Source: Escherichia coli (GTDB lineage: Bacteria > Pseudomonadota > Gammaproteobacteria > Enterobacterales > Enterobacteriaceae). From it: DNA of 64,000 nucleotides. Numbering within the stretch: the stretch's first letter is position 1; each line of letters begins with the position of its first letter. The DNA is taken from assembly GCF_011045215.1 (NCBI RefSeq), contig NZ_CP049201.1, one strand, 5' to 3'. Below, piece by piece: positions 29,364-50,730 of the stretch. The notes beneath the pieces are model-generated. The model saw only the letters and a list, made by a program, of their open reading frames with translations. It made no database searches and was not told where the DNA came from. Both the position numbers and the translations under genes were made by a program.

Positions 29364-29579
29364 TTAACAAACGTGATCTGGTTCGCCATCCATTTCAACC
29401 AGTTCAGCTTCAAAATCAGCACATACCTTTGAAAAGTAAGTGCGTAGTTTTTCTGTCGCGTCATGGTCAAAAATCTGGCGTCGGTATCTGGTGACAAAGA
29501 CCAGGTGAACATGCATCAGGAAAACACAATGCCTTCCACGCCGGATATCGGTTTCTTTTTTCACAGACCAAAGTATCAT
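29364..29579 (-). pseudogene. tnpA: IS200/IS605 Y1 transposase TnpA fragment (3'-truncated just before the HuH motif)
   Basis: 71 aa: ...HVHLVFVTRYRRQ... ends ...GEPDHVC-stop where HuH (HVHLL) is expected; full TnpA is ~140-150 aa. Confidence 0.65.
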
Positions 29580-29586
29580 TTGGCCT

Positions 29587-30795
29587 GTGAAACGACTACA
29601 GGCATTTAAATTCCAGTTAAGACCCGGTGGTCAACAGGAGCGTGAAATGAGGCGCTTCGCAGGCGCATGTCGTTTCGTTTTCAATCGTGCTCTGGCACGT
29701 CAGAATGAGAATCATGAGGCCGGTAATAAATACATCCCTTACGGGAAAATGGCTTCCTGGCTGGTTGAGTGGAAAAATGCCACTGAAACGCAATGGCTTA
29801 AAGATGCCCCGTCACAGCCATTGCAACAGTCACTGAAAGACCTTGAGCGGGCTTACAAAAACTTCTTCCGGAAGCGGGCTGCTTTTCCCCGATTCAAAAA
29901 GCGGGGACAGAATGATGCATTCCGCTACCCGCAGGGCGTTAAGCTCGATCAGGAAAACAGTCGTATTTTTCTGCCGAAACTTGGCTGGATGCGCTACCGG
30001 AATAGCCGTCAGGTCACGGGTGTTGTGAAAAATGTCACTGTCAGCCAGTCCTGCGGTAAGTGGTACATCAGTATTCAGACTGAAAATGAAGTATCAACTC
30101 CGGTTCACCCTTCAGCATTAATGGTCGGACTGGATGCTGGCGTGGCTAAACTCGCCACGCTGTCAGATGGCACAGTCTTTGGGCCTGTAAACAGTTTTCA
30201 GAAAAACCAGAAGACGCTGGCGAGACTTCAGCGACAGTTAAGCCGCAAGGTCAAATTCAGCAACAACTGGCAGAAGCAGAAACGCAAAATACAGCGACTG
30301 CATTCCTGTATCGCAAATATCCGCAGGGACTACCTTCACAAAGTCACAACGACCGTCAGCAAAAACCACGCAATGATAGTCATTGAGGATTTGAAGGTCA
30401 GCAACATGTCAAAGTCAGCAGCGGGTACGGTCAGCCAGCCGGGGCGCAATGTCCGGGCAAAATCAGGTTTAAACCGTTCGATACTGGATCAGAGCTGGTA
30501 TGAAATGCGCCGCCAGCTTGAGTACAAGCAGCTCTGGCGTGGCGGTCAGGTGCTTGCTGTTCCGCCAGCGTACACAAGCCAGCGTTGCGCGTGCTGTGGT
30601 CATACAGCGAAAGAAAATCGCCTGTCACAAAGTAAATTCAGATGCCAGGCATGTGGATATACAGCGAACGCTGATGTAAATGGCGCTCGTAACATTTTAG
30701 CGGCGGGGCACGCCGTTCTTGCCTGTGGAGAGATGGTGCAGTCAGGCCGCCCGTTGAAGCAGGAACCCACCGAAATGATTCAGGCGACAGCCTGA
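29587..30795 (+). CDS. tnpB: TnpB (OrfB_IS605; RuvC-like RNA-guided endonuclease family)
   Basis: 402 aa; RuvC-I GLDAGV, Ruv[10 protein letters not shown], Zn-ribbon CxxC...CxxC (QRCACCGH...RCQACGY), Ruv[14 protein letters not shown]. Confidence 0.9.
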
Positions 30796-30846
30796 ACGTA
30801 GCAGGGATCCTCGTCCTTCAGAGCGTGGAGGATGTCAACAAACAGG

Positions 30847-31506
30847 TTAAATTAACTCCGCGCCCTGGTTTTTGACATTACCTACCGCGCGCGATACCGG
30901 GTGCCAGGTGAACTGGTTTGCTGGCACACATCCACTGGTAGCAATTTCTGAGGCTTCTTTACCGCCAACCTCTTGCCGCATCCATTCCCGTGCAGCTTCT
31001 GGCGACAGAACCAGCGGGCGGCGGTCATGAATATCTACCAGACCTTGATCTGCCGCCGCAGTGACGATCAAAAATCCTTCGGCTTCGTCACCACGCTCAA
31101 ATGGTGTGCTTCCTATCGCGGCCATAAAAACAGGTTTTCCGTCAGTACGATAGATAAAATAAGGCTGCTTTTTGTCGCCTTCTTTTTTCCACTCAAACCA
31201 GCCATCGGCAAAACAGATTGCCCGACCGTGTTGCCAGAGCGGTTTAAACATGCGACTGGTTGCGGCAGTTTCTACGCGGGCGTTAATCAGCGGCGGTTTA
31301 TCCCACCATCCGGGAGCATATCCCCAGAAAACCGGATCCAGATGAAGGTGTTCATCACGTTCACTGAGCAGAAGAACTTTGGTTCCCGGCGCGACGTTGT
31401 ATCTGCCAATGGGTTCGGGATCGTAGGGAATATCGCGTTCAATATCTTCCGCGAGAAGCGCAAGGTAATCTTCACGCGTTTGGGATTGGGCAAAGCGTCC
31501 ACACAT
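30847..31506 (-). CDS. yedK: SOS-response-associated peptidase (SRAP) YedK, abasic-site processing protein
   Basis: 219 aa starting MCGRFAQ (catalytic Cys2). Confidence 0.9.
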   Translation of the reverse strand: MCGRFAQSQTREDYLALLAEDIERDIPYDPEPIGRYNVAPGTKVLLLSERDEHLHLDPVFWGYAPGWWDKPPLINARVETAATSRMFKPLWQHGRAICFADGWFEWKKEGDKKQPYFIYRTDGKPVFMAAIGSTPFERGDEAEGFLIVTAAADQGLVDIHDRRPLVLSPEAAREWMRQEVGGKEASEIATSGCVPANQFTWHPVSRAVGNVKNQGAELI

Positions 31507-31612
31507 AGAAACCTCCTGAGATCATACTGAAAAGAATAGGAGAGGGGGCGGGTAAAATCTATGTGTCAGAGGCAACGATGTTCCCGCTGTGGGCCACAGC
31601 GGGAATGAGGGA

Positions 31613-31846
31613 TTACTTCTGAATTAAATAACGAATGGTCGGCCCGTCTTGCTGAATATCCAGCACCGTATAGCCGTGATTACGCGCATCCAGTGGAATA
31701 TTATTGATCGACTGTGGACAGTCGCTCACCACTTCCAGGATCTCACCTTTTTTTAACTGCGGCATCGCCTCAAGGGTTGCGACTGCCGGATAAGGGCAGG
31801 GTTCACCCACCATATCAAGACGGTAATCAGGAATGATATTTTTCAT
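31613..31846 (-). CDS. yedF: TusA-like sulfurtransferase YedF
   Basis: 77 aa with CPxP motif (EPCPYP). Confidence 0.9.
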   Translation of the reverse strand: MKNIIPDYRLDMVGEPCPYPAVATLEAMPQLKKGEILEVVSDCPQSINNIPLDARNHGYTVLDIQQDGPTIRYLIQK

Positions 31847-33048
31847 GCGATCTCCTTAGCAGTCTGCGGTGCCGCACGGCGGAAGAAGCGTTTTTCCCAG
31901 CCGATAATCAACATCAGCGCAGTAAACAACAGCAAATATGTCACCAGCAGGCCACCCATCGGGCCAAAGGTTTTCAGCAGGTTTATTTTGTCCCAGTCGG
32001 TGGCCAGCGCTGGAGCGAAATCATCCCAGTAATACGCCAGAATCGTTGAGCCGATCACATTGCCCAGACCGACCCACCAGTAGTGCACCTGGCCTTCTAC
32101 CGCGCGGTACATCCAGCCGGTTTCGCAGCCGCCAGCCAGCACGATGCCAAAACCAAACAGTAAACCACCAATTACCGCGTTTGGTCCCGCCCACATGATT
32201 TTGGGTTCAACGCCTAACTGTACGTAACTGAAGATCCCGATGGCACTCACCGCCATACCGATAATGATTGCTTTCGCCATATGAGTACGTCCGGTGATCC
32301 ACATATCGCGGAACGCCGAAGTAAAGCAGATTTGCGCACGTTCAATCAGTAAACCAAAGCCGACGCCAAACAGCATTGCCAGCCCCAGTTTGGGTTGGTT
32401 CATCGCCGTGAGCAGCGCCCAGCCCAGCATGCCGAAAAAGACCAGCATCCCGAGACGAAAACGACGTCGCGCCTGATCCGGTTTTTGCGTCAGCGGTGAG
32501 GCGGCAGAAACTTTCTGCATTTTCACGGGAATACGGAAGATGGGCAGCAGGGTAAAGCGCGCGCCAAACCATGAACCAATGGCAGTGGCGATGGCAAAGA
32601 ACCAGGCATGCAGCGAGAACTGAGGAATACCGGTAAAGAACGCCGCCAGGTTACAGCCCATTGCCAGACGCGCGCCAAAACCGGCGATAATGCCGCCAAT
32701 GATGGCCTGCATAATGCGGATACGGCTGCGCGGCATTCGCAGTTTGACATTGTTGGCCCACAGCGCTGCGGCAAAGCAGCCGCCAAACATACCGAGGATC
32801 ATCATCCCGTCGATGCGGGTTAATGGCGATCCTTCCAGATGGATAATTTTAAAGTAACCCCACTCTTCAGCATGGACGCCGAACAGTTGCAGGAGCTGGC
32901 CGCCCCAACGGGTAAATTCACCCGTGACAGCCCAAAAGGTGCCAGTAATGCCAAAATAGTAAGTGGAGAGAATACCCGCCGCGATGACCGCGGGGATGGG
33001 CGCCCAGAATTTAATCAACCAGGCGTGTTTGAATTGCTGCCATGACAT
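31843..33048 (-). CDS. yedE: YedE/YeeE-family inner membrane transporter (selenium/sulfur compound uptake)
   Basis: 401 aa polytopic membrane protein overlapping yedF start. Confidence 0.9.
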   Translation of the reverse strand: MSWQQFKHAWLIKFWAPIPAVIAAGILSTYYFGITGTFWAVTGEFTRWGGQLLQLFGVHAEEWGYFKIIHLEGSPLTRIDGMMILGMFGGCFAAALWANNVKLRMPRSRIRIMQAIIGGIIAGFGARLAMGCNLAAFFTGIPQFSLHAWFFAIATAIGSWFGARFTLLPIFRIPVKMQKVSAASPLTQKPDQARRRFRLGMLVFFGMLGWALLTAMNQPKLGLAMLFGVGFGLLIERAQICFTSAFRDMWITGRTHMAKAIIIGMAVSAIGIFSYVQLGVEPKIMWAGPNAVIGGLLFGFGIVLAGGCETGWMYRAVEGQVHYWWVGLGNVIGSTILAYYWDDFAPALATDWDKINLLKTFGPMGGLLVTYLLLFTALMLIIGWEKRFFRRAAPQTAKEIA

Positions 33049-33231
33049 GAATGTAGCCTCTGAACTCAGAAGGTTTGAAACAAGAGTCGCGAATCATACA
33101 CCATGCAAATTTATTTTCGGGGTAATAATTCACAAAAATAATAGTTAGATCAAATTTCTCTCTGAACCTGGAAAGGCTGGCGACATCAGGGCTTTAATGC
33201 CACAATCCTCTTTTCTTCTCATGCAGGACGA

Positions 33232-33648
33232 ATGATGAAAAAACTCGCAATTGCAGGCGCGCTCATGTTGCTGGCGGGCTGTGCCGAAGTCGAAAACTAT
33301 AACAATGTCGTGAAAACCCCCGCGCCGGACTGGCTGGCGGGCTACTGGCAGACCAAAGGGCCGCAACGTGCGCTGGTCAGCCCGGAAGCGATAGGCAGCC
33401 TGATTGTCACTAAAGAGGGCGATACCCTGGATTGCCGTCAGTGGCAGCGGGTGATTGCTGTGCCGGGCAAGTTGACATTGATGTCTGATGATCTCACTAA
33501 CGTTACCGTAAAACGTGAGCTGTACGAGGTTGAGCGTGACGGTAACACCATTGAGTACGATGGTATGACGATGGAGCGTGTGGATCGCCCGACGGCAGAG
33601 TGTGCCGCCGCGCTGGATAAAGCGCCGTTACCGACGCCACTGCCGTAA
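33232..33648 (+). CDS. yedD: Lipoprotein YedD
   Basis: 138 aa; lipobox LLAGC. Confidence 0.85.
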   Translation: MMKKLAIAGALMLLAGCAEVENYNNVVKTPAPDWLAGYWQTKGPQRALVSPEAIGSLIVTKEGDTLDCRQWQRVIAVPGKLTLMSDDLTNVTVKRELYEVERDGNTIEYDGMTMERVDRPTAECAAALDKAPLPTPLP

Positions 33649-33651
33649 TGA

Positions 33652-33672
33652 AATCTCCCCGGCTTGCTGCCG
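33652..33672. terminator. Hairpin between convergent yedD and amyA (ccccggc..gccgggg)
   Basis: Inverted repeat immediately after yedD stop. Confidence 0.45.
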
Positions 33673-33681
33673 GGGATGAAT

Positions 33682-35169
33682 TTAAATCACCTCTTCGATA
33701 ACCCACACGCTAACGCTGCCGCCGTTGCAAAAGAAGGTCGCTTCGCCGTTTTCGTCGGTTACTACACTCTCTTGCCGGTTCCCAAGAAAATCACGCCAGG
33801 TTTTATTGCCGTAATTCTCTCCCAGATGAATGGTTTTTTCGCCATCATCCCCGTTCGACATGACCACCACGCAGCCGGGATATTCGTCAGTGCCACTGCG
33901 GCTAAAGGCAATGCAGTTCGGATGGTCGAAAAATAACGTCTGTACACCGTGGGCGAAACGCTGACGGGCGAGAATTAACTCATCAAGCTGTTCGATTATT
34001 GGCATATCTATCGGATAGGTTTGCCCGTCACCACCGACATCTTCGTAATGCGCACCGTAGAGGTCCGGATAGAATACCGAAGGAACGCCATTTTCCCGCA
34101 ACAAAATTAAGGCGTACGCCAGCGGTTTAAACCACGGTTCGACCGGCGCTTCGAGGGCTTGCAACGGTTGGGTGTCATGGTTGGCAACGAGGGTTACGGC
34201 GTGAAAAGGATCGGCTTCCACCAGCGTCCCAGTGAAAATCTGCGTCATGTCGTAGTCGCGTCCCATGCGCGATGCTTCATGGAATTTCATCTGCAGCGGC
34301 GCATCAAACAGCATGGTTTTGCCTTCCACCTGATCAATATACGTTTGCAGTTTATCGACTTCATGCGACCAGTACTCTGCCACAATAAACAGCGGCTTTG
34401 GCGCAACTTCCTGTACGTGTTCGATCCACTCTTTATAAAACCACGCCGGAATATGTTTGACCGCATCAAGACGAAAACCGTCGCATTGTGTTTGTTCCAT
34501 CACCCAGCGCGCCCAGTATTTAATCTCTTCCGTCACGGCATGATTGCGGAAATCGATATTCTCACCCATCAGATAATCGAAATTACCTAATTCATCATCA
34601 ACCTGATCGTTCCAGCCTTCGCCGGTGTAGTCGTTAACAATTTTAAATATGCCATCTTCATCAGGGTTTTCGATATGGTCGATACCGCTAAAACATTTGA
34701 AATCCCAGATAAACTGTGAGTATTGCCCGGCACGGGCGGGGAAGGTGTAACGCGTCCAGCCTTCGCACTCAATGATTTCTTCATCAATTTGCGTACGGTC
34801 GTCAGCATTTACACGCTGCACGCGAATAGCTTCTTTTTCATCCGCGCCCATTTTGTGGTTGACTACCACGTCCAACAGCACCGCAATGTCATTACGTTTC
34901 AGGGCGTCAATGGCGGCCAGCAGTTGTACTTTATCGCCATATTTAGTAGGGATGCTGCCTTTCTGATCAAACTCACCTAAATCAAATAAATCATAGGAGT
35001 CGTAGCCGACCGAATACCCGCCCGATGCGCCTTTATAGGCGGGCGGCAACCAGACCATATTGATACCAATATCATTAAAACCGTCGGCGCGCTCGGCCAG
35101 TTCAGGCCAGAGCTTACCGCCTTCCGGGTAATACCAGTGAAAACATTGTAACAGCGTGGGATTACGCAT
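33682..35169 (-). CDS. amyA: Cytoplasmic alpha-amylase AmyA (GH13)
   Basis: 495 aa; GH13 conserved regions ([12 protein letters not shown]). Confidence 0.93.
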
Positions 35170-35246
35170 TCTTCGACTCCATTCAAGGGGAACATTAGAA
35201 GCGTAGCCGTAATCGGATTATTCGCGAGCCATCGACTCATTCAGAT

Positions 35247-35612
35247 TCAAAAGAGGTTATCCTGCGGAGCCAGCACAAAGCCGCCCTGATCGCCATAGGC
35301 ACTTAACACCGATTTTTGCACCGATGACTGACCGACCAGTTTCGCCAGTTCATCCATCCGAATCTGTAATAACTGCTTTACCTTGCTTTCGTTGTCGAGA
35401 ATCAGGCGCAGCATCGGGCGGAGCTGCTCCTGCATCGTGGTGGACGGGTCTATTTCTTCAGTCAGATGTGCAATCTCCTGCACCGCATTCACATACGCCA
35501 TTTCGCTGGCGATGAGTTCGTCCCATTGTTCTTCCGTTGCCAGGCGTAACATGAGCTGGCTTTTTTCGACGAGTTGTTGCCAGGCGAAATACAAATGCGG
35601 TGCATGGTTCAT
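35247..35612 (-). CDS. fliT: Flagellar chaperone / FlhDC anti-activator FliT
   Basis: 121 aa, last gene of fliDST. Confidence 0.9.
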
Positions 35613-36022
35613 CAGACTGGGTCCTGAATCAAAGAAGGGGAGAGTAACGACTCTTTCCAGGCATCGGCAATATTGCGCATTAATGCTTCCACTTCTTCGA
35701 CTGCGGAGACATCGTTGCGTAAATTGGCTTGCAGCAAGCGCCTGACCATATAGCTATAAAGAGCAATCAAGTTTTGGGTTAATTCGTCTTTGCTCTCTTC
35801 ATCAAGACTCACCCGCAGTCCGTTCTCAATGATGTTGATCGCTTTTGACAAAGAGACGCCTTTGCCTTGCTGATTGTTGTCCTGCATAAACAGGCGCGCT
35901 CTAACCAGTGCGCTCAGCACTCCATCAAATAGCATGGTGACCAGCTGCTGCTGGCTGGCGCTCATTACGGCGCTTTCGACGCCAATTTGTGCATAGGCCT
36001 GGGTGCCTTTTGCCGCGTACAT
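35612..36022 (-). CDS. fliS: Flagellin-specific chaperone FliS
   Basis: 136 aa. Confidence 0.92.
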
Positions 36023-36046
36023 GACCTGTCTCCCGATGAATAATGA

Positions 36047-37453
36047 TTACTTGGAATTACTGTTGTTTTCGAACTGCTGCGTTAAGTAGCTGCTTGTGCT
36101 GTTTAACGAGGTCATTAAAACGTCCAGTTGGGTAAATTGTTCTTTGTAGCGCGCGACCTGCGCATCAATGCGATCGCTGGCGGCGTTGTAGTCTTTAGTT
36201 AATTTATTCAGGGTCTTACTAACGCCATCGGTAGCGGCTTTAATAATGCCCGTTGTCGAAAGCCAACTGGTCAGGTTGCTGCCGATGGTGGTCGTGATGC
36301 CGGTTTTTTTACCATCGCCAACAATCAATGCACCTACGCCGCTGGCATCTTTTTTCAGTGCAGCGGTGAGTTTGTCGGCATCCAGTTCCAGTTTGCCATC
36401 GCTGGGATCGGTCGTGATATCAATCTGCGCCAACGTTTTATAGCTGGAAGAACTGACGGTATTACTCAGCATCGATTTCAACTGCGTCTGAATCGTCCGC
36501 AGCGTGGAGTCGCCGAGCAGTGCGCCATTGCTAGAACTCTGGCTATCAGCTCCTGCATCTACGGCGGTGTATTTGGTCAGGCTGCTGAAGGTATCTATTA
36601 GCGAGTTATAGGCATTCACCCAGTCTTTAATCGCCGTTTGCGCTTTGGAGGTGTCCTGAGTGATGGTCAGCGTCTGGTTGCCCGTGGTGACATCGTTCAG
36701 GTTCAGGGTGATGTTTTCCAGCGCGTCGCTGATGGTGTTGCTGCTGTTCTCAATGGCGACGTTGTTGACCGTCAGCTGCGCATTCTGGGCGGCGACCGAG
36801 ACTTCCATGCCGTTGCTGCTGGCACTGGCGTCATAGCCCATAAAACTTTGTAGCGCATCATCACCGCTGACCGAGAGTGTCATCGCATTGTCAAGGCCGG
36901 TGTCATTTGATGTGACTGACAGACGATATTCACCGTTACCCACGTTAATGATGCTCGCACTTACGCCCGCTTTTGCGTTGTTGATGGCATCACGGATCCC
37001 GCTTAACGACGAGTTAGCCGCGCTGATATCAATGGTAATCGGATCTTTGTCGCCGCCTTGTTGAATGGTGAGTTTACTGTCGCTGGTGGCGATCGCCGTT
37101 TTCGTCTCGTCTCTGGTGGTGCGCGTGGTCAGGGTTTGCGCCTGCGCCAGATGGGTGACGCTGATGGTGTATTTCCCGGCGATAGCGTTTCCCGCAGTGG
37201 TGGCACTGAACGCGGTGGTGCTGCTGGTGGTGCTGGTGGCGGAAAAAAGATCAGCTTTAGACAATGCAGTATTGGCGGTCTGGAAAGTCGTCAGCGCGCT
37301 TTTCAGCGTACCGTAGGCGCTAAGTTTAGCGGTAAACGACGATTGCTGATTTGATATAGGGGTTAGCGTCGCTTTTTGCGCGGCGGTGAGGCTATCGAGG
37401 ATTGAACTTAAATCCAGACCTGACCCGACTCCCAGCGATGAAATACTTGCCAT
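36047..37453 (-). CDS. fliD: Flagellar filament cap protein FliD
   Basis: 468 aa. Confidence 0.93.
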   Translation of the reverse strand: MASISSLGVGSGLDLSSILDSLTAAQKATLTPISNQQSSFTAKLSAYGTLKSALTTFQTANTALSKADLFSATSTTSSTTAFSATTAGNAIAGKYTISVTHLAQAQTLTTRTTRDETKTAIATSDSKLTIQQGGDKDPITIDISAANSSLSGIRDAINNAKAGVSASIINVGNGEYRLSVTSNDTGLDNAMTLSVSGDDALQSFMGYDASASSNGMEVSVAAQNAQLTVNNVAIENSSNTISDALENITLNLNDVTTGNQTLTITQDTSKAQTAIKDWVNAYNSLIDTFSSLTKYTAVDAGADSQSSSNGALLGDSTLRTIQTQLKSMLSNTVSSSSYKTLAQIDITTDPSDGKLELDADKLTAALKKDASGVGALIVGDGKKTGITTTIGSNLTSWLSTTGIIKAATDGVSKTLNKLTKDYNAASDRIDAQVARYKEQFTQLDVLMTSLNSTSSYLTQQFENNSNSK

Positions 37454-37486
37454 GCGATTTCCTTTTATCTTTCGACACGTAAAACG

Positions 37487-37514
37487 AATACCGGGGTTAT
37501 CGGCCTGAATTGCG
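37487..37514 (-). promoter_or_regulatory. Sigma-28 (FliA) class 3 promoter of fliD
   Basis: Minus-strand reads TAAACTTT-N11-GCCGATAA, matching sigma-28 consensus TAAAGTTT-N11-GCCGATAA. Confidence 0.75.
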
Positions 37515-37615
37515 CAAAGTTTACGTTTAATTGTTTTTTTTAATAGCGGGAATAAGGGGCAGAGAAAAGAGTATTTCGGCGACTAACAAAAAATGGCTGT
37601 TTGTGAAAAAAATTC

Positions 37616-37642
37616 TAAAGGTTGTTTTACGACAGACGATAA
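37616..37642 (+). promoter_or_regulatory. Sigma-28 (FliA) class 3 promoter of fliC
   Basis: TAAAGGTT-N11-GACGATAA upstream of fliC start. Confidence 0.7.
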
Positions 37643-37718
37643 CAGGGTTGACGGCGATTGAGCCGACGGGTGGAAACCCAATACGTAATCAACGACTTGC
37701 AATATAGGATAACGAATC

Positions 37719-39536
37719 ATGGCACAAGTCATTAATACCAACAGCCTCTCGCTGATCACTCAAAATAATATCAACAAGAACCAGTCTGCGCTGTCGAGTT
37801 CTATCGAGCGTCTGTCTTCTGGCTTGCGTATTAACAGCGCGAAGGATGACGCAGCGGGTCAGGCGATTGCTAACCGTTTCACCTCTAACATTAAAGGCCT
37901 GACTCAGGCTGCACGTAACGCTAACGATGGTATCTCTCTGGCGCAGACCACTGAAGGCGCACTGTCTGAGATTAACAACAACTTACAACGTGTGCGTGAG
38001 TTGACTGTACAGGCGACCACCGGTACTAACTCTGATTCTGACCTGGCTTCTATTCAGGACGAAATCAAATCCCGTTTGTCTGAAATTGACCGCGTATCCG
38101 GGCAGACCCAGTTCAACGGCGTGAACGTATTGTCTAAAGATGGCTCCCTGAAAATTCAGGTTGGCGCAAATGATGGTCAGACTATCTCTATCGACCTGAA
38201 GAAAATTGACTCTGATACTCTGGGTTTGAATGGTTTCAACGTTAATGGTTCTGGTACCATTGCAAACAAAGCGGCCACAATCAGTGACTTGACTGCTCAG
38301 AAAGCCGTTGACAACGGTAATGGTACTTATAAAGTTACAACTAGCAACGCTGCACTTACTGCATCTCAGGCATTAAGTAAGCTGAGTGATGGCGATACTG
38401 TAGATATTGCAACCTATGCTGGTGGTACAAGTTCAACAGTTAGTTATAAATACGACGCAGATGCAGGTAACTTCAGTTATAACAATACTGCAAACAAAAC
38501 AAGTGCTGCGGCTGGAACTCTGGCAGATACTCTTCTCCCGGCAGCTGGCCAGACTAAAACCGGTACTTACAAGGCTGCTACTGGTGATGTTAACTTTAAT
38601 GTTGACGCAACTGGTAATCTGACAATTGGCGGACAGCAAGCCTACCTGACTACTGATGGTAACCTTACAACAAACAACTCCGGTGGTGCGGCTACTGCAA
38701 CTCTTAAAGAGCTGTTTACTCTTGCTGGCGATGGTAAATCTCTGGGGAACGGCGGTACTGCTACCGTTACTCTGGATAATACTACGTATAATTTCAAAGC
38801 TGCTGCGGACGTTACTGATGGTGCTGGTGTCATCGCTGCTGCTGGTGTAACTTATACAGCCACTGTTTCTAAAGATGTCATTCTGGCACAACTGCAATCT
38901 GCAAGTCAGGCAGCAGCAACCGCTACCGACGGTGATACTGTCGCAACGATCAACTATAAATCTGGTGTCATGATCGGTTCCGCTACCTTTACCAATGGTA
39001 AAGGTACTGCCGATGGTATGACTTCTGGTACAACTCCAGTCGTAGCTACAGGTGCTAAAGCTGTATATGTTGATGGCAACAATGAACTGACTTCCACTGC
39101 ATCTTACGATACGACTTACTCTGTCAACGCAGATACAGGCGCAGTAAAAGTGGTATCAGGTACTGGTACTGGTAAATTTGAAGCTGTTGCTGGTGCGGAT
39201 GCTTATGTAAGCAAAGATGGCAAATTAACGACAGAAACCACCAGTGCAGGCACTGCAACCAAAGATCCTTTGGCTGCCCTGGATGCTGCTATCAGCTCCA
39301 TCGACAAATTCCGTTCCTCCCTGGGTGCTATCCAGAACCGTCTGGATTCCGCAGTCACCAACCTGAACAACACCACTACTAACCTGTCTGAAGCGCAGTC
39401 CCGTATTCAGGACGCCGACTATGCGACCGAAGTGTCCAATATGTCGAAAGCGCAGATCATCCAGCAGGCCGGTAACTCCGTGTTGGCAAAAGCTAACCAG
39501 GTACCGCAGCAGGTTCTGTCTCTGCTGCAGGGTTAA
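37719..39536 (+). CDS. fliC: Flagellin FliC (605 aa, long variable central domain)
   Basis: Conserved N-terminus MAQVINTNSLSLITQNNINKNQSALSSSIERLSSGLRINSAKDDAAGQAIANRF and C-terminus ...QVPQQVLSLLQG; Thr/Ala/Gly-rich central region. Confidence 0.95.
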   Translation: MAQVINTNSLSLITQNNINKNQSALSSSIERLSSGLRINSAKDDAAGQAIANRFTSNIKGLTQAARNANDGISLAQTTEGALSEINNNLQRVRELTVQATTGTNSDSDLASIQDEIKSRLSEIDRVSGQTQFNGVNVLSKDGSLKIQVGANDGQTISIDLKKIDSDTLGLNGFNVNGSGTIANKAATISDLTAQKAVDNGNGTYKVTTSNAALTASQALSKLSDGDTVDIATYAGGTSSTVSYKYDADAGNFSYNNTANKTSAAAGTLADTLLPAAGQTKTGTYKAATGDVNFNVDATGNLTIGGQQAYLTTDGNLTTNNSGGAATATLKELFTLAGDGKSLGNGGTATVTLDNTTYNFKAAADVTDGAGVIAAAGVTYTATVSKDVILAQLQSASQAAATATDGDTVATINYKSGVMIGSATFTNGKGTADGMTSGTTPVVATGAKAVYVDGNNELTSTASYDTTYSVNADTGAVKVVSGTGTGKFEAVAGADAYVSKDGKLTTETTSAGTATKDPLAALDAAISSIDKFRSSLGAIQNRLDSAVTNLNNTTTNLSEAQSRIQDADYATEVSNMSKAQIIQQAGNSVLAKANQVPQQVLSLLQG

Positions 39537-39580
39537 TCGTTGTAACCTGATTAACTGAGACTGACGGCAACGCCAAATTG

Positions 39581-39678
<98 letters not shown>

Positions 39679-39710
39679 AACATGAATGGTAATTTGTCAG
39701 CAACGTGCTT

Positions 39711-39735
39711 CCCCGCCACCGGCGGGGTTTTTTCT
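39711..39735 (+). terminator. Rho-independent terminator downstream of fliC
   Basis: ccccgccaccggcgggg hairpin followed by T-run. Confidence 0.6.
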
Positions 39736-39855
39736 GCCTGGAATTTACCGGTAACCCCCAAATAACCCCTCATTTCACCCACTAATCGTCCGATTAAAAA
39801 CCCTGCAGAAACGGATAATCATGCCGATAACTCATATAACGCAGGGCTGTTTATC

Positions 39856-40575
39856 GTGAATTCACTCTATACCGCTGAAGGTGTAATGGATAAACACTCG
39901 CTGTGGCAGCGTTATGTCCCGCTGGTGCGTCACGAAGCATTGCGCCTGCAGGTTCGACTGCCCGCGAGCGTGGAACTTGACGATCTGCTACAGGCGGGCG
40001 GCATTGGGTTACTTAATGCCGTCGAACGCTATGACGCCCTACAAGGAACGGCATTTACAACTTACGCAGTGCAGCGTATCCGTGGCGCTATGCTGGATGA
40101 ACTTCGCAGCCGTGACTGGGTGCCGCGCAGCGTGCGACGCAACGCGCGTGAAGTGGCACAGGCAATAGGGCAACTGGAGCAGGAACTTGGCCGCAACGCC
40201 ACGGAAACTGAGGTAGCGGAACGTTTAGGGATCGATATTGCCGATTATCGCCAAATGTTGCTCGACACCAATAACAGCCAGCTCTTCTCCTACGATGAGT
40301 GGCGCGAAGAGCACGGCGATAGCATCGAACTGGTTACTGATGATCATCAGCGAGAAAACCCGCTACAACAACTGCTGGACAGTAATCTGCGCCAGCGGGT
40401 GATGGAAGCTATCGAAACGTTGCCGGAGCGCGAAAAACTGGTATTAACCCTCTATTACCAGGAAGAGCTGAATCTCAAAGAGATTGGTGCAGTGCTGGAG
40501 GTCGGGGAATCGCGGGTCAGTCAGTTACACAGCCAGGCTATTAAACGGTTACGCACTAAACTGGGTAAGTTATAA
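39856..40575 (+). CDS. fliA: Flagellar sigma factor sigma-28 FliA
   Basis: 239 aa; sigma-70 regions 2 and 4. Confidence 0.95.
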   Translation: MNSLYTAEGVMDKHSLWQRYVPLVRHEALRLQVRLPASVELDDLLQAGGIGLLNAVERYDALQGTAFTTYAVQRIRGAMLDELRSRDWVPRSVRRNAREVAQAIGQLEQELGRNATETEVAERLGIDIADYRQMLLDTNNSQLFSYDEWREEHGDSIELVTDDHQRENPLQQLLDSNLRQRVMEAIETLPEREKLVLTLYYQEELNLKEIGAVLEVGESRVSQLHSQAIKRLRTKLGKL

Positions 40576-40620
40576 CGTCAGTAAATGCCGCACTTTAACT
40601 TTGACTACCAGGAGTTCTTA

Positions 40621-41172
40621 ATGATGGTGCAGCACCTGAAAAGACGGCCATTAAGCCGCTATCTTAAAGACTTTAAACACAGCCAGACCCATTGCGCGCA
40701 TTGCCGTAAATTACTCGATCGCATTACCTTAGTTCGCGACGGCAAAATAGTGAATAAAATCGAGATTTCCCGCCTGGACACGCTGCTTGATGAAAATGGC
40801 TGGCAAACGGAACAAAAATCATGGGCGGCATTGTGCCGATTTTGCGGTGATTTACATTGCAAAACGCAGAGTGATTTTTTCGATATTATCGGCTTTAAGC
40901 AATTTCTTTTTGAGCAAACTGAAATGAGCCCAGGTACGGTGCGTGAATATGTCGTTCGTCTGCGCCGTTTGGGGAATCATCTACACGAGCAAAATATTTC
41001 CCTCGATCAGCTGCAGGACGGTTTCCTTGATGAAATCCTCGCCCCGTGGCTGCCCACCACCAGCACCAACAATTACCGCATCGCATTACGGAAGTATCAA
41101 CACTATCAGCGCCAAACCTGTACCGGACTTGTGCAGAAATCCTCCAGCCAGCCTGCTTCTGATATATATTAA
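40621..41172 (+). CDS. fliZ: Regulator FliZ
   Basis: Start at ATG 40621 (MMVQHLKRRPLSRYLKDF), 183 aa. Confidence 0.9.
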   Translation: MMVQHLKRRPLSRYLKDFKHSQTHCAHCRKLLDRITLVRDGKIVNKIEISRLDTLLDENGWQTEQKSWAALCRFCGDLHCKTQSDFFDIIGFKQFLFEQTEMSPGTVREYVVRLRRLGNHLHEQNISLDQLQDGFLDEILAPWLPTTSTNNYRIALRKYQHYQRQTCTGLVQKSSSQPASDIY

Positions 41173-41259
41173 ATAAGAATAAGATGTAGCGGAGTTGTTT
41201 TTGTGTTTACAAACAATGGCTCTACACTGCAAACAGACATAACAACATTCGGGGTGAAT

Positions 41260-43151
<1,892 letters not shown>

Positions 43152-43165
43152 CTCCGGGAACGCTC

Positions 43166-43834
43166 ATGCAAGAAAGTATACAACTGGTTATTGATTCCTT
43201 GCCGTTCCTGCTGAAAGGGGCTGGGTATACGCTGCAACTCAGTATCGGCGGCATGTTTTTTGGCTTACTGCTCGGGTTTATTCTCGCGCTGATGCGCCTG
43301 TCGCCAATCTGGCCCGTGCGCTGGCTGGCGCGTTTTTATATCTCTATTTTTCGTGGTACACCGCTCATCGCACAACTGTTTATGATCTATTACGGCCTGC
43401 CGCAGTTTGGTATCGAATTAGATCCCATTCCGTCAGCAATGATTGGTCTGTCGCTCAACACTGCCGCCTATGCCGCCGAAACACTGCGCGCCGCCATTTC
43501 TTCTATTGATAAAGGTCAGTGGGAAGCAGCTGCCAGTATTGGTATGACGCCGTGGCAGACCATGCGTCGCGCGATTTTGCCACAGGCGGCGCGGGTGGCG
43601 TTGCCGCCGCTGTCGAACAGCTTTATCAGCCTGGTAAAAGATACGTCGCTGGCCGCGACAATCCAGGTGCCGGAGCTGTTCCGTCAGGCGCAGTTGATTA
43701 CCTCGCGCACGCTAGAGGTGTTCACCATGTACCTGGCGGCTTCGCTCATCTACTGGATCATGGCGACAGTATTATCGACGTTGCAGAACCATTTTGAGAA
43801 TCAACTTAATCGCCAGGAGAGAGAACCAAAATGA
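43166..43834 (+). CDS. tcyL: Cystine ABC transporter permease TcyL (YecS)
   Basis: 222 aa; polar amino-acid ABC permease. Confidence 0.9.
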   Translation: MQESIQLVIDSLPFLLKGAGYTLQLSIGGMFFGLLLGFILALMRLSPIWPVRWLARFYISIFRGTPLIAQLFMIYYGLPQFGIELDPIPSAMIGLSLNTAAYAAETLRAAISSIDKGQWEAAASIGMTPWQTMRRAILPQAARVALPPLSNSFISLVKDTSLAATIQVPELFRQAQLITSRTLEVFTMYLAASLIYWIMATVLSTLQNHFENQLNRQEREPK

Positions 43835-44583
43835 GTGCCATTGAAGTTAAGAACCTGGTGAAAAAATTTCACGGTCAGACGGTGCTGCACGGTATCGACC
43901 TTGAGGTAAAGCCTGGCGAAGTGGTGGCAATTATCGGTCCGAGTGGTTCCGGCAAAACCACGTTGCTACGCAGCATAAATCTGCTGGAACAACCCGAAGC
44001 GGGAACGATCACCGTTGGCGATATCACTATTGATACTGCACGTTCATTAAGTCAGCAAAAATCGCTGATTCGCCAGTTGCGTCAGCACGTCGGGTTTGTC
44101 TTCCAGAACTTTAATTTGTTTCCGCATCGTACGGTGCTGGAAAACATTATTGAAGGGCCGGTGATCGTCAAAGGCGAACCGAAAGAAGAGGCCACGGCGC
44201 GCGCTCGCGAGCTACTGGCGAAAGTTGGGCTGGCCGGTAAAGAAACCAGCTATCCACGTCGTTTGTCTGGCGGTCAACAGCAACGTGTTGCGATTGCACG
44301 TGCGCTGGCAATGCGTCCTGAGGTGATTTTGTTTGACGAGCCAACGTCGGCGCTGGATCCAGAGCTGGTGGGCGAAGTCCTGAACACCATCCGTCAGCTG
44401 GCGCAGGAAAAGCGCACGATGGTGATTGTGACGCACGAAATGAGCTTTGCCCGGGATGTTGCGGACCGGGCGATCTTTATGGACCAGGGGCGGATAGTCG
44501 AGCAGGGGGCCGCAAAAGCGTTATTTGCCGATCCCGAGCAGCCTCGCACCCGCCAGTTCCTCGAGAAGTTTCTGCTGCAATAA
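43831..44583 (+). CDS. tcyN: Cystine ABC transporter ATP-binding protein TcyN (YecC)
   Basis: 250 aa; Walker A GPSGSGKTT, signature LSGGQQQRVAIARAL, Walker B ILFDEPTSALD. Confidence 0.93.
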   Translation: MSAIEVKNLVKKFHGQTVLHGIDLEVKPGEVVAIIGPSGSGKTTLLRSINLLEQPEAGTITVGDITIDTARSLSQQKSLIRQLRQHVGFVFQNFNLFPHRTVLENIIEGPVIVKGEPKEEATARARELLAKVGLAGKETSYPRRLSGGQQQRVAIARALAMRPEVILFDEPTSALDPELVGEVLNTIRQLAQEKRTMVIVTHEMSFARDVADRAIFMDQGRIVEQGAAKALFADPEQPRTRQFLEKFLLQ

Positions 44584-44589
44584 TAAGAA

Positions 44590-44626
44590 AAAATCAGCCC
44601 CGACGATTCGACAGTCGGGGCGGAAC
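44590..44626 (+). terminator. Rho-independent terminator after tcyN
   Basis: ccccgacgattcgacagtcgggg hairpin. Confidence 0.55.
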
Positions 44627-44812
44627 GCCATTTCAAGCCTGATAAAACTGCTTAACAAATCAGCATAACTCATTAATAACATAAGAGAATGTGATGGCTT
44701 GCAAAAGTAATTCATTGCCTGAATAATATAAATTATATATAAATCTTATTTATGTGATAGTTTGAATTATCATTATAAATGATACTCACTCTCAGGGGCG
44801 TTGCGGTTTACT

Positions 44813-45535
44813 ATGCAGGATACGGATTTTTTCAGCTGGCGTCGCACGATGCTGTTGCGTTTTCAGAGGATGGAGGCCGCAGAAGAGGTCTACCATGAAA
44901 TAGAGCTTCAGGCTCAGCTGCTGGAGTACGATTACTATTCGTTATGTGTTCGCCACCCGGTACCATTCACTCGACCTAAAGTGGCTTTCTACACCAATTA
45001 CCCTGAGGCGTGGGTTAGTTATTATCAGGCAAAAAACTTTCTCGCAATTGATCCGGTACTGAACCCTGAAAACTTTAGTCAGGGCCATCTAATGTGGAAT
45101 GATGACTTATTCAACGAAGCACAGCCGTTATGGGAAGCCGCGCGCGCACATGGTTTACGCCGCGGTGTCACTCAGTATTTAATGCTGCCAAACCGGGCGC
45201 TGGGCTTTTTGTCCTTTTCCCGTTGCAGCGCGCGCGAAATACCCATTCTTAGTGATGAACTGCAATTAAAAATGCAGTTACTGGTGCGCGAAAGTCTGAT
45301 GGCTCTGATGCGTTTAAATGATGAAATAGTGATGACGCCAGAGATGAATTTCAGCAAGCGCGAAAAAGAAATTCTGAGGTGGACGGCGGAAGGGAAGACA
45401 TCAGCAGAGATAGCGATGATTTTGTCAATCTCTGAGAATACGGTCAATTTCCACCAGAAAAACATGCAGAAAAAAATTAATGCACCAAATAAGACCCAGG
45501 TTGCCTGTTACGCGGCCGCTACTGGCTTAATTTGA
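44813..45535 (+). CDS. sdiA: LuxR-family quorum-sensing regulator SdiA
   Basis: Start at ATG 44813 (MQDTDFFSWRRTMLLRFQRM), 240 aa; C-terminal LuxR HTH. Confidence 0.93.
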   Translation: MQDTDFFSWRRTMLLRFQRMEAAEEVYHEIELQAQLLEYDYYSLCVRHPVPFTRPKVAFYTNYPEAWVSYYQAKNFLAIDPVLNPENFSQGHLMWNDDLFNEAQPLWEAARAHGLRRGVTQYLMLPNRALGFLSFSRCSAREIPILSDELQLKMQLLVRESLMALMRLNDEIVMTPEMNFSKREKEILRWTAEGKTSAEIAMILSISENTVNFHQKNMQKKINAPNKTQVACYAAATGLI

Positions 45536-45564
45536 TCTCTTTTCTGTCCTGCGTGCCAGATGCA

Positions 45565-45600
45565 AAAACCGGCTGAAAGGCACGCTATCAGCCGGTTTTA
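45565..45600. terminator. Bidirectional hairpin terminator between sdiA and yecF
   Basis: aaaaccggctga...tcagccggtttt palindrome between convergent genes. Confidence 0.65.
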
Positions 45601-45602
45601 TA

Positions 45603-45827
45603 TTACTGACGGTAGGCTTGTTTAATTTGCTTAACCGTTTTGGAAAATACTGCAGCCTGGGTTTCGTCTTCGATCAGCGCAAGCTGTTTTTCCATCTTTA
45701 ACATCACGCGGCCCGCGTCAGCTTGTCCCATCGCCTGCAGCATCAGCGTCAGCATCGCTTTCAGGCAGGAGACTTCATTTGCCAGTTCTTGATTATTCTC
45801 GGCAGTAGAAAAATCAGGCGTACTCAT
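45603..45827 (-). CDS. yecF: Small protein YecF
   Basis: 74 aa; conserved position. Confidence 0.85.
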
Positions 45828-46285
45828 TTATTTTCCTCGTCATGTTGCAATGAAAATTTGCGGTGAAAAATGTTAAGGCGGCGGAGTATACCATAAGCTT
45901 TGCTAAAAATAGCAGTGGTTGTTTTTTGAGCGTGTCGTCAACGGTGCTATTAAATGCGTTAATATAATGACCAATAAATATTTTTATCATGAATGTTTTT
46001 TGCCCGTATTGTTCGGGTTAATTAATGTTACATATTCAGCGGGCTGATTTTCATTTTTGCTGAATAAAGGTAATTTTTGTCACATTTCGTCGCAGGGCTT
46101 ACTGTGAAACGATCCGGTAAGCCGTTGGTGACGGGCGTGACCATAACTGTGGACAATCGAATTGACAAAAACGAGAGAAAAATCGAATACCCACCATTTT
46201 TAACGTTTCAAAGTTGCAATAAAAACCGCTAATATACGAATGACTAACTATCAGTAGCGTTATCCCTATTTCTGGAGATATTCCT

Positions 46286-46942
46286 TTGATCAACGTTCTA
46301 CTTGTTGATGACCACGAACTGGTGCGCGCAGGGATACGACGCATTCTGGAAGATATAAAGGGTATAAAAGTCGTCGGTGAGGCATCGTGCGGTGAAGACG
46401 CCGTTAAGTGGTGCCGGGCAAATGCCGTTGACGTGGTGCTAATGGACATGAGTATGCCGGGCATTGGCGGTCTTGAGGCGACGCGTAAAATCGCGCGTTC
46501 CACAGCTGATGTAAAAATCATCATGCTTACCGTCCATACAGAAAACCCTTTACCAGCGAAAGTCATGCAGGCCGGTGCTGCGGGCTACCTCAGCAAAGGC
46601 GCGGCTCCGCAGGAAGTCGTGAGTGCGATCCGTTCTGTCTATTCTGGGCAGCGTTACATTGCTTCTGACATCGCTCAACAAATGGCATTAAGCCAGATCG
46701 AACCAGAAAAAACAGAAAGCCCATTTGCCAGTTTGTCTGAACGTGAATTGCAGATTATGCTGATGATCACCAAGGGCCAGAAGGTCAATGAGATCTCAGA
46801 ACAGCTCAATCTCAGTCCGAAAACGGTGAACAGCTACCGCTATCGTATGTTCAGCAAACTAAACATTCATGGCGATGTTGAGCTGACTCACCTGGCAATT
46901 CGCCATGGTCTGTGTAATGCGGAGACATTATCAAGTCAGTGA
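46286..46942 (+). CDS. uvrY: Response regulator UvrY (BarA partner; LuxR/FixJ family)
   Basis: 218 aa ([19 protein letters not shown]...); apparent TTG start preceded by GGAGAT. Confidence 0.92.
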
Positions 46943-48771
46943 GTGATCAGTTTGACGCAAAAGCGTTTTTAAAAACCGTAACCAGCCAGCCTGGCGTTTA
47001 TCGCATGTACGATGCTGGTGGTACGGTTATCTATGTCGGCAAAGCGAAAGACCTGAAAAAACGGCTTTCCAGCTATTTCCGTAGCAACCTCGCTTCGCGC
47101 AAAACCGAAGCGCTGGTCGCCCAGATCCAGCAAATTGATGTAACGGTTACTCATACAGAAACCGAAGCGCTGTTGCTGGAACACAACTACATCAAACTCT
47201 ATCAGCCGCGTTACAACGTTTTGCTACGCGATGATAAATCATATCCTTTTATCTTCCTGAGTGGCGATACCCACCCGCGTCTGGCGATGCATCGTGGTGC
47301 AAAGCATGCCAAAGGTGAATATTTCGGCCCGTTCCCGAATGGCTATGCCGTACGTGAAACACTGGCGCTACTGCAAAAGATTTTCCCCATTCGCCAGTGC
47401 GAAAATAGTGTTTATCGCAATCGCTCGCGTCCATGTCTGCAATATCAGATAGGGCGCTGTCTGGGACCGTGCGTTGAAGGACTGGTGAGTGAAGAAGAAT
47501 ACGCTCAGCAGGTCGAGTATGTGCGCCTGTTTTTGTCTGGCAAAGATGATCAGGTGCTTACGCAACTGATTAGCCGTATGGAAACTGCCAGTCAGAATCT
47601 GGAGTTTGAAGAAGCGGCACGTATTCGCGACCAAATTCAGGCGGTGCGACGCGTCACCGAAAAACAGTTTGTTTCCAATACCGGCGACGACCTTGACGTT
47701 ATTGGTGTGGCGTTCGATGCGGGCATGGCTTGTGTCCACGTATTGTTCATTCGTCAGGGCAAAGTGCTTGGCAGCCGCAGCTATTTCCCGAAAGTGCCTG
47801 GCGGTACGGAACTGAGCGAGGTGGTGGAAACCTTCGTAGGACAGTTCTATTTACAAGGCAGCCAGATGCGCACCTTACCGGGTGAGATCCTGCTCGATTT
47901 TAATCTTAGCGATAAAACGCTGCTCGCCGATTCCCTTTCAGAACTGGCGGGACGCAAGATTAATGTTCAAACCAAACCTCGCGGCGATAGGGCGCGTTAT
48001 CTGAAACTCGCGCGCACCAATGCGGCGACGGCCTTAACCAGCAAACTTTCGCAGCAATCTACCGTTCACCAGCGGCTTACAGCACTTGCCAGCGTGTTGA
48101 AATTGCCGGAAGTGAAGCGGATGGAGTGCTTTGACATCAGCCATACCATGGGTGAACAAACCGTCGCTTCCTGTGTGGTGTTTGATGCTAACGGCCCGCT
48201 GCGTGCGGAGTATCGGCGCTATAACATTACTGGCATCACGCCGGGCGATGATTATGCGGCGATGAATCAGGTGCTGCGTCGGCGTTATGGTAAAGCCATC
48301 GACGACAGTAAGATCCCGGATGTGATACTTATCGACGGCGGCAAAGGCCAGCTTGTGCAGGCGAAAAATGTCTTCGCCGAACTGGATGTCTCATGGGATA
48401 AAAATCATCCGCTGCTACTTGGCGTTGCCAAAGGAGCAGATCGTAAGGCTGGGCTGGAAACGCTGTTCTTTGAGCCGGAAGGTGAGGGATTCAGTTTGCC
48501 GCCAGATTCTCCCGCGCTGCATGTTATCCAGCATATTCGCGATGAATCACATGATCACGCGATTGGCGGGCACCGTAAAAAACGGGCGAAGGTCAAAAAT
48601 ACCAGTTCCCTGGAAACCATTGAAGGCGTCGGGCCAAAACGCCGGCAAATGTTGTTGAAATATATGGGCGGTTTGCAAGGTTTACGTAACGCCAGCGTCG
48701 AGGAAATTGCAAAAGTGCCGGGTATTTCGCAAGGTCTGGCAGAAAAGATCTTCTGGTCGTTGAAACATTGA
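46939..48771 (+). CDS. uvrC: Excinuclease ABC subunit C UvrC
   Basis: 610 aa; GIY-YIG N-terminal domain, C-terminal HhH; start overlaps uvrY stop. Confidence 0.95.
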
Positions 48772-49742: not shown

Positions 49743-49829
49743 GCCCGGATGGTGGAATCGGTAGACACAAGGGATTTAAAATCCCTCGGCGTTCGCGCTG
49801 TGCGGGTTCAAGTCCCGCTCCGGGTACCA
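49743..49829 (+). tRNA. leuZ: tRNA-Leu (anticodon TAA), long variable arm
   Basis: GCCCGGATGGTGGAATCGGTAGACACAAGGGATTTAAAATCCC...CCGGGTACCA. Confidence 0.92.
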
Positions 49830-49865
49830 TGGGAAAGATAAGAATAAAATCAAAGCAATAAGCAG

Positions 49866-49897
49866 TGTCGTGAAACCACCTTCGGGTGGTTTTTTTG
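49866..49897 (+). terminator. Rho-independent terminator of the tRNA operon
   Basis: aaaccaccttcgggtggttttttt. Confidence 0.7.
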
Positions 49898-49998
49898 TAT
49901 TTGTATTTTGAGCAATGGCGGTAGAGTGGCGGTGGTGTGGCGATATGCAGAAACAACAATGGTAGTGCACGTGCTGTTTAAGCTCTAAGGATGAAGCA

Positions 49999-50190
49999 GA
50001 ATTCTCCTGCAGCTCCTCCGTATTTCGCATAGTGAACCAAGACTTCGGTTAAACAAAATTTTTCTGGGATTTTTCCACTCGACTTCATTTTTCCTCCAGT
50101 CATCCACCAAAGGTACCTGCGCTAATCTATCTTTTTTAATCTGACAACATCCTGAGAAAAGGCAAATTCGTCAGATTTACTGTTTTTTCT
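49999..50190 (-). repeat. Degenerate hok/sok-like element lacking the hok ORF (paralogous to 50860-51230)
   Basis: Direct, ~70-75% similar blocks (ctccgtatttcgcatagtgaacc / cttcggttaaaca / ccaaaggtacctgcgctaatctatc / aggcaaattcgtcagatt) shared with the hok locus flanks; the ~120 bp carrying the hok CDS is absent. Confidence 0.55.
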
Positions 50191-50652: not shown

Positions 50653-50730
50653 TTACTTTTGACTGGTTTGTTTTGCGAGCATTATGTGTGTTGTTAACGG
50701 TACCCTAGCTAAGTGAGAGTTCCAAAATAA

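Follow-up and report, generated by a model that had tools for sequence, protein, structure and literature searches.

Positions 37719–39536 of the window (the whole 64-kb stretch of E. coli DNA that was analyzed) hold, on the plus strand, an intact ORF in the ORF listing that begins with ATG and encodes 605 aa. We identified this gene as the chromosomal fliC of E. coli, encoding flagellin of the known H51 antigen type in a variant with aspartate at residue 364 (D364), and we place the probability of this reading at about 0.93. The minus-strand neighbors are amyA, fliT, fliS and fliD, and the plus-strand neighbors are fliA, fliZ, tcyJ and dcyD. The resulting order, amyA-fliT-fliS-fliD on one side and fliC-fliA-fliZ on the other, is canonical and matches annotated E. 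coli chromosomes, with the gene divergent from fliDST and upstream of fliAZ, as expected of chromosomal fliC. Since the gene occupies the fliC locus and a second flagellin ORF was not found within the 64-kb window, both a flagellin at a non-fliC locus and an additional flagellin were rejected. To locate candidate promoters, the sigma-28 consensus TAAAGTTT-N11-GCCGATAA was scanned across the 64-kb window with up to three mismatches. This yielded two matches only, both in the intergenic region between fliD and fliC and one facing each gene. The features of the locus are as follows.

36047–37453, minus strand: fliD (filament cap), the divergent neighbor (ORF; annotated at the equivalent position in three compared loci)
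37497–37523, minus strand: predicted sigma-28 type promoter for fliD-fliS-fliT, the divergent operon, TAAACTTT-N11-GCCGATAA (consensus scan, 1 mismatch)
37616–37642, plus strand: predicted sigma-28 (FliA) type promoter of fliC, TAAAGGTT-N11-GACGATAA (consensus scan, 2 mismatches)
37706–37709, plus strand: Shine-Dalgarno-like AGGA, 9 nt before the ATG (read from the sequence)
37719–39536, plus strand: fliC coding sequence (H51 allele, D364 variant), 605 aa plus stop (ORF, Pfam and NCBIfam families, nucleotide identity to typed H51 strains)
39575–39680, no strand assigned: REP/BIME-like palindromes downstream of fliC (our own reading of the palindromes, not tool output)
39711–39737, plus strand: intrinsic terminator-like hairpin with seven G-C pairs, followed by a T run
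39856–40575, plus strand: fliA (sigma-28), the downstream neighbor (ORF; annotated at the equivalent position in three compared loci)

Going 3' from the fliC stop, the palindromes come first, then the terminator-like hairpin and then the region upstream of fliA. Inside the palindromes there is a borderline match to the Rfam family ES036 (CssrF) at 39601–39642 on the minus strand, which reaches 38.1 bits where the gathering score is 37.6.

The protein is a member of the FliC/FljB family, as every defining feature of the family that is open to computation was found. NF005953 (FliC/FljB family flagellin) spans residues 1–605 with 768.9 bits against a cut-off of 619 (NCBIfam). Pfam places Flagellin_N (PF00669) at residues 5–140 (E 3.9e-46, 157 bits against a cut-off of 26.6), Flagellin_C (PF00700) at residues 519–603 (E 5.3e-31, 107.2 bits against a cut-off of 23), and the enterobacterial FliC central family at residues 338–509. 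The 605-aa chain contains no Cys, Trp or His. The first-pass annotation, made from the DNA letters, had described a long flagellin of 605 aa at 37719–39536, and both the ORF listing and the Pfam and NCBIfam families agree with this. It had also called the protein much longer than the 498-aa K-12 flagellin, which holds, as the K-12 chain in 8cxm has 498 aa. An internal duplication was considered as the source of the extra length and rejected, as there are no meaningful repeats in the flagellin.

The limits of the outer region were transferred from the constructs of the Nissle 1917 flagellin, for which D0 is defined as residues 1–47 and 555–595 and D1 as residues 48–175 and 499–554 (bioRxiv 10.64898/2026.03.27.714778), by way of a 41-sequence alignment. 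This divides the coding sequence into three parts, listed here with two shorter features of the outer region.

37719–38243, plus strand: N-terminal conserved part, residues 1–175, D0 and D1 helices of the filament core (Flagellin_N, 95–98% amino-acid identity to other E. coli and Kluyvera flagellins, transferred boundaries)
38244–39242, plus strand: outer hypervariable region, residues 176–508, predicted D2-D3-D4, H51 specificity (composition, AlphaFold2 model, fold matches)
38658–38678, plus strand: GNLTTNN, residues 314–320, aligned to the D4 dimer-interface segment of H7 (translation and alignment to H7)
38808–38810, plus strand: codon 364, GAT (Asp) here and AAT (Asn) in the common ST155 allele, the sole amino-acid difference from that allele
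39243–39533, plus strand: C-terminal conserved part, residues 509–605, D1 and D0 helices (Flagellin_C, 95–98% amino-acid identity to other flagellins)

The conserved D0/D1 termini named by the first-pass annotation are thus borne out, by both terminal families and by the 95–98% amino-acid identity of the terminal parts to their relatives. Its central region of ~350 aa, rich in Thr, Ala and Gly, is right in composition and somewhat long in extent: by boundary transfer the outer region has 333 aa, with 17.7% T, 16.8% A and 12.3% G, for a total of 46.8% compared with 23.4% in residues 1–175. Judging from the families, residues 1–175 and 509–605 would form the D0/D1 core of the filament, including the D1 surface recognized by TLR5. 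The TLR5-facing D1 segment, LQRVRELTVQ, lies at residues 89–98, in conserved sequence; L89, Q90, R91, R93, E94, L95, V97 and Q98 are among the columns that do not vary in the 41-sequence alignment. The suggestion of the first-pass annotation that flagellotropic phage or immune recognition may target this flagellin is a generic one.

We assigned the H type by comparison with typed strains. By megablast, the full-length gene was present in 35/5,426 complete E. coli genomes, 33 of them at 99.8–99.9% identity and the other two at 99.2% and 98.7%; in the remaining complete genomes the match was limited to the conserved ends, at no more than 90.4%, the value reached by alleles of the 568-aa type. 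The central 981 nt were recovered by sensitive blastn from the same 35 of the 5,426 genomes and from none of the other 5,391. As the central sequence is confined to these 35 genomes, the central domain is specific to the H51 type, which fits the earlier description of the central domain as extended and variable and as the part by which the H serotype is defined. The window gene is 99.9% identical to that of E19025, E18005 and NCTC11129 and 99.8% identical to that of JS01 (CP148986), and each of these four genomes has one match to fliC. E18005 and E19025 were typed as O78:H51 and NCTC11129 as O8,O60:H51, all of them ST155 (PMC10740950 Table 3), while JS01 is O177:H51, ST155, typed with SerotypeFinder (PMC11969786). 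Two of the matching genome records also carry O78:H51 in their titles. Because there is a single fliC match per typed genome, their H51 call must rest on that gene. Being near-identical to the sole fliC of four strains typed as H51 in two independent papers, the window gene can be assigned as fliC-H51, an assignment that rests on others' genome-based typing of near-identical alleles. The first-pass annotation had left the H type open, and the source strain can now carry the H51 label. Compared with the common ST155 allele, 1816/1818 nt are identical, and the differences are G1090A (D364N) and the synonymous C1761T. Public databases already contain the exact 605-aa protein (for example, AVE94140.1), on 155 contigs. 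With the exact protein on record, and with architecture and recombination behavior documented for related types, we regard the gene as already known rather than new. The H51 type itself was defined decades ago.

The identity to the ST155 H51 genomes extends beyond the gene on both sides and then stops.

36669–40244, no strand assigned: block near-identical to the ST155 H51 genomes, from inside fliD to inside fliA (4 mismatches in ~3.6 kb)

Outside this block there are 10–18 mismatches per 500 nt on both sides relative to the same genomes (~2–3% divergent). Four other contigs encode the same protein in different contexts; in these, 38262–39269 is identical to the window, and the conserved ends carry scattered differences that have no effect on the protein. 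Of the two complete-genome alleles that diverge more, one is 99.2% identical to the window gene overall and 99.9% in its central part, the other 98.7% and 99.6%. The palindromic stretch downstream of the gene (39541–39710) is missing from two of four other H51 backgrounds. An identical H51 center in several backgrounds, with flanks that are 2–3% divergent, has the footprint of homologous recombination, and 36669–40244 marks a recombination tract of the well-known H-antigen cassette kind. Homologous recombination has carried the H51 cassette from one E. coli lineage to another, and its breakpoints fall within the conserved ends of fliC or next to them. For the flanks, no complete genome matched above ~99%, and over the left 25 kb the identity to ordinary E. 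coli is 99.6%. As this left part is ordinary E. coli, the low identities of the flanks reflect local mosaicism, and a background from a divergent lineage (cryptic clade) was rejected on the same grounds. For a specialist this is one more clean case of H-antigen cassettes moving between E. coli lineages, and not an unexpected one. It is also a reminder, useful for reading serotype-based epidemiology, that equal H type does not imply equal lineage.

To characterize the central region, we compared the protein with known structures. In a phmmer search against PDB sequences, it aligned end to end with the flagellin of EHEC O157:H7 (7sn4, 585 aa; E 2.5e-192), followed in the ranking by the flagellins of EPEC H6, Azotobacter and Achromobacter. 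An AlphaFold2 monomer model built on the 41-sequence alignment had a mean pLDDT of 73.7, with values of 85–95 across most of residues 180–350, 380–430 and 450–510 and low-confidence loops at 364–373 (pLDDT <50) and 434–445. With this model as the query, Foldseek ranked 7sn4 best (E 6e-46), then 9n59, 7sqd and 7sn7; E-values ranged from 1e-46 to 1e-29 for the sheath-forming flagellins, compared with ~1e-15 for Salmonella FliC. Superposition of the full-length model on 7sn4 gave a TM score of 0.42 and an rmsd of ~37 Å, presumably due to different domain orientations in the monomer model. Taken together, the model, the fold matches and the 7sn4 alignment predict the D2-D3-D4 arrangement of the sheath-forming flagellins, and the central region would be more than the merely variable stretch of the first-pass annotation, namely a predicted three-domain D2-D3-D4 module of the H7/H1 class. 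The flagellins of H7, H6 and Achromobacter have three outer domains, D2–D4, that dimerize or tetramerize into an outer-domain sheath (Kreutzberger et al, 2022, PMC8931119), and 7sn4, 7sqd and 7sn7 are described as such sheath formers with three outer domains (PMC8931119). The sequence of the D4 interface is conserved among them, and mutation of N319/N323 in H7 disrupts the sheath and strongly cuts motility in soft agar (PMC8931119). A layer-line spacing of ~30 Å has been reported for H7. In the window protein, N315 and N319 align to H7 N319 and N323, and both lie inside GNLTTNN, which is identical in the two proteins, so the D4 dimer-interface segment of the sheath flagellins is present with both of its asparagines. 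Across the 41 aligned sequences, L316, T318 and N319 are invariant and G314 is nearly so.

From the predicted three-domain fold and the GNLTTNN segment shared with H7, we consider it likely that H51 forms sheath-type filaments, provided that the gene is expressed, although this call draws on a monomer model and a seven-residue motif and is weaker than that of the H51 type. Residues 176–508 would then fold as D2, D3 and D4, as in the H7, H6 and H1 flagellins, and the outer domains would pair via the conserved D4 interface, GNLTTNN, to build a sheath around the core. The H51 epitopes would sit on this sheath, which would also modulate waveform and tumbling, as in H7. The alternative that survives best is that H51 has three outer domains that do not dimerize into a sheath and instead decorate the filament in the canonical, helically equivalent manner of Salmonella FliC or K-12 H48. 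In its favor, a sheath has been demonstrated for H7, H6 and Achromobacter only (PMC8931119), the structural model of H51 is that of a monomer, and the H51 central region is just 40.5% identical to H7, with extra loops at ~404–410 and 427–445. However, H51 shares with H7 the D4 interface segment, both asparagines included, this segment is conserved over the 41 relatives, and the fold matches put the sheath-forming flagellins far above Salmonella FliC, so we regard an unsheathed filament as unlikely. Within the sheath-type reading, contacts other than that of D4 (the D2 dimers) may differ from those of H7, given that the center is only 40.5% identical to H7 and ~55% identical to the 595-aa E. 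coli type.

The origin of the allele was approached by searching the outer region alone against 5.8 billion proteins. The closest relative was a 597-aa flagellin on a metagenome-derived contig (65% identity), whose conserved ends have ~79% DNA identity to the window gene. Next came Kluyvera flagellins of 595–597 aa at 56–59% and E. coli flagellins of 595 aa at ~55%. Unexpectedly, over its 5' 525 nt the H51 gene shares 92.0% identity with K. ascorbata fliC, compared with 88.2–89.7% with three other E. coli alleles, which are 94–98% alike among themselves over the same 5' 525 nt. Over the 3' 294 nt, Kluyvera and the other E. coli alleles lie at much the same distance from the H51 gene (91.5–93.2%). 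Part of the H51 allele may therefore have an inter-genus history, a suggestion drawn from pairwise identities among few alleles. A bolder version is that the whole gene was imported from a Kluyvera-like enterobacterium and then passed, as a recombination cassette, through several phylogroups of E. coli, with the extra loops at ~404–410 and 427–445 perhaps giving a sheath geometry unlike that of H7. We hold this to be quite doubtful.

Turning to expression, the intact ORF, the sigma-28 promoter, the ribosome-binding site and the terminator together make this look like a fully functional gene, judged by its sequence signals. From what is known of the flagellar regulon, FliA-RNA polymerase would transcribe fliC as a class III flagellar gene. 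By analogy with the families involved, the flagellin would be exported via the flagellar type III system with FliS as its chaperone and would polymerize beneath the FliD cap. Two mobile elements lie in the vicinity. First, a P2-like prophage lies 10 kb downstream of fliC and carries a frameshifted orphan cargo gene. Second, a full-length IS605-family TnpB is encoded at 29587–30795, 7 kb upstream of fliC, where it adjoins yedK at a site common to many E. coli.

These elements have a bearing on the possibility that fliC is cryptic or repressed here, with the H antigen coming from an flkA, fllA or flmA type locus or from a phage-encoded flagellin. In Enterobacteriaceae, phages are known to encode RNA-guided repressors that act on host fliC, and both the P2-like prophage downstream and the IS605-type TnpB upstream count toward such a scenario. 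Against it, the ORF, promoter, ribosome-binding site and terminator of fliC are all intact, the 64-kb window holds no second flagellin ORF, no TnpB/TldR-like gene was found in the prophage portion that the window covers, and the upstream TnpB is a full-length IS605-family protein beside yedK, as in many E. coli. We consider a silent fliC very improbable. Phage-mediated remodeling of the flagellum (by a TldR together with a phage flagellin) was rejected as a specific case, since neither a TnpB-like gene nor a flagellin was found in the part of the prophage within the 64-kb window.

Likewise very improbable is a new or untypeable H type that resembles H51 (an antigenic variant by way of N364D or mosaic ends): the allele is not 100% identical to any in the 5,426 complete genomes, the best being 2 nt off including D364N, and residue 364 probably sits in an exposed loop of the outer region (364–373, modeled at pLDDT <50), but this is one substitution in 605 residues, the central 333 aa are otherwise the same as in the typed H51 strains, and the D364 protein is itself common (155 contigs, several backgrounds). 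Genome-based H typing, moreover, uses identity thresholds far under 99.8%, which counts against a new type.

The reading that we retain, a chromosomal fliC of type H51 in its D364 variant, can be compared with several known systems. The closest is the ST155 H51 allele itself (NCTC11129, APEC E19025/E18005 and JS01; WP_001724634.1), which has the same 605-aa length and the same locus and a center that is identical bar residue 364. The window differs in having D364 for N364 and in its background, which is ~2–3% different outside 36669–40244. EHEC H7 (7sn4, 585 aa) is 62% identical overall (BLASTP), with termini at 95–96%, the same predicted D2-D3-D4 layout and the same GNLTTNN. It is of another antigen type, however, and relative to it the H51 protein has a center of 40.5% identity, is 20 aa longer, has the extra segments at ~404–410 and 427–445, and is without an H7 segment near 250–265.

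The E. coli flagellins of 595 aa, which we take to be H1/H12, are laid out as D0-D1-linker-D2-D3-D4 like H51 and, with a center that is ~55% identical, are the closest E. coli relatives found. They are 10 aa shorter than H51, with another central sequence and another H type. A D1–D4 crystal structure has been reported for one of this length, that of Nissle 1917 (595 aa; bioRxiv 10.64898/2026.03.27.714778). FliC of Kluyvera ascorbata and K. cryocrescens (595–597 aa) has a center that is 56–59% identical and termini that are ~98% identical in protein, but it belongs to another genus, its central domain is clearly distinct, and its flanking genes reach 81% identity for fliA and 77% for fliD.

The K-12 flagellin H48 (498 aa, 8cxm) and Salmonella FliC (1ucu, 3a5x) are of the same family and share the D0/D1 core of H51. 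They differ from it in having shorter outer regions, and their Foldseek E-values are 1e-12 to 1e-15, compared with 1e-46 for H7. The outer region of the K-12 and Salmonella flagellins consists of D2-D3 only, without D4. Their filaments are canonical and have no sheath (PMC8931119). H51, by comparison, can be counted among the E. coli flagellins for which an outer-domain sheath is predicted, a property that in H7 is tied to tumbling and motility.

The 5' end of fliC, which here carries an intact H51 allele (37719-39536, plus strand), was compared with the corresponding part of loci L007, L008, L010, L012 and L014, among them three other E. coli alleles and Kluyvera. Three features lie in or near the gene:

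37719-38243, conserved block at the 5' end of fliC
29587-30795, plus strand, full-length TnpB of the IS200/IS605 family, about 7 kb upstream of fliC
39541-39710, REP/BIME-like palindromic stretch separating the fliC stop codon from the fliC terminator

Over these 525 nt, the H51 allele is 92.0% identical to fliC of Kluyvera ascorbata but just 88–90% identical to the other three E. coli alleles. Among themselves, those three share 94–98% identity in this block. Elsewhere the two genera are only 81% (fliA) and 77% (fliD) identical. Considering these identities, part of the H51 allele may have an inter-genus origin.

Judging by database matches, the surroundings of fliC are a local mosaic. The best match in a complete E. 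coli genome is 98.7% for the upstream flank (28500-36500) and 99.1% for the downstream flank (40500-48500), while matches to the leftmost 25 kb of the window reach 99.6%; such a pattern is consistent with recombination hitch-hiking about the H-antigen gene. The palindromic stretch is found in the window and in most backgrounds but is missing from L003 and L005, two other H51-carrying contigs. Within it (39601-39642, minus strand) lies a borderline match to the Rfam sRNA ES036/CssrF, scoring 38.1 bits where the gathering score is 37.6.

The upstream TnpB, which adjoins yedK (30847-31506, minus strand), contains HTH_OrfB_IS605, OrfB_IS605 and Cas12f1-like TNB domains and occurs at the identical site in many E. 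coli. In the sole annotated example (L008, a locus of RefSeq record NZ_CP026085.1), it is flanked by a partial tnpA. This record is titled 'DH5alpha', yet it encodes a 564-aa flagellin (16281-17975), as compared to 498 aa in K-12; the record is probably either not a K-12 derivative or mislabelled.

Further downstream, a P2-like prophage adjoins a tRNA-Gly/Cys/Leu cluster (tRNA-Leu, 49743-49829), and about 82% of the prophage stretch is common to 18 complete genomes at 97% identity. The features are:

49830-64000, P2-like contractile-tail prophage, reaching the window end
51175-51435, minus strand, ogr
51655-53077, low-GC cargo gene between ogr and gpD
53273-54514, minus strand, gpD
54540-55724, sheath
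55724-56236, tube
56771-59614, tape measure
59621-60115, gpU
60212-61450, minus strand, 411-aa ORF flanked by gpU and the gene for tail-fibre assembly
61485-62084, minus strand, tail-fibre assembly
62084-63259, minus strand, tail fibre

Two of these genes lie between recognizable phage functions. First, the 411-aa ORF has a weak match to Glyco_transf_9 (E = 7.7e-05) and a strong one to PHROG 36326, whose function is unknown, and the gene at the same position in strain A17 is annotated as 'transferase'. Its product could be a phage-encoded surface-modifying enzyme. Second, the cargo gene is split into overlapping ORFs of 346 and 192 aa, and it is frameshifted in the window, as the two jointly match a single hypothetical protein of 487 aa in strain A17 (100% and 92%). 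Pfam, PHROG and PADLOC returned no family for it. In P2-like phages, the position between ogr and gpD commonly holds anti-phage defence cargo.
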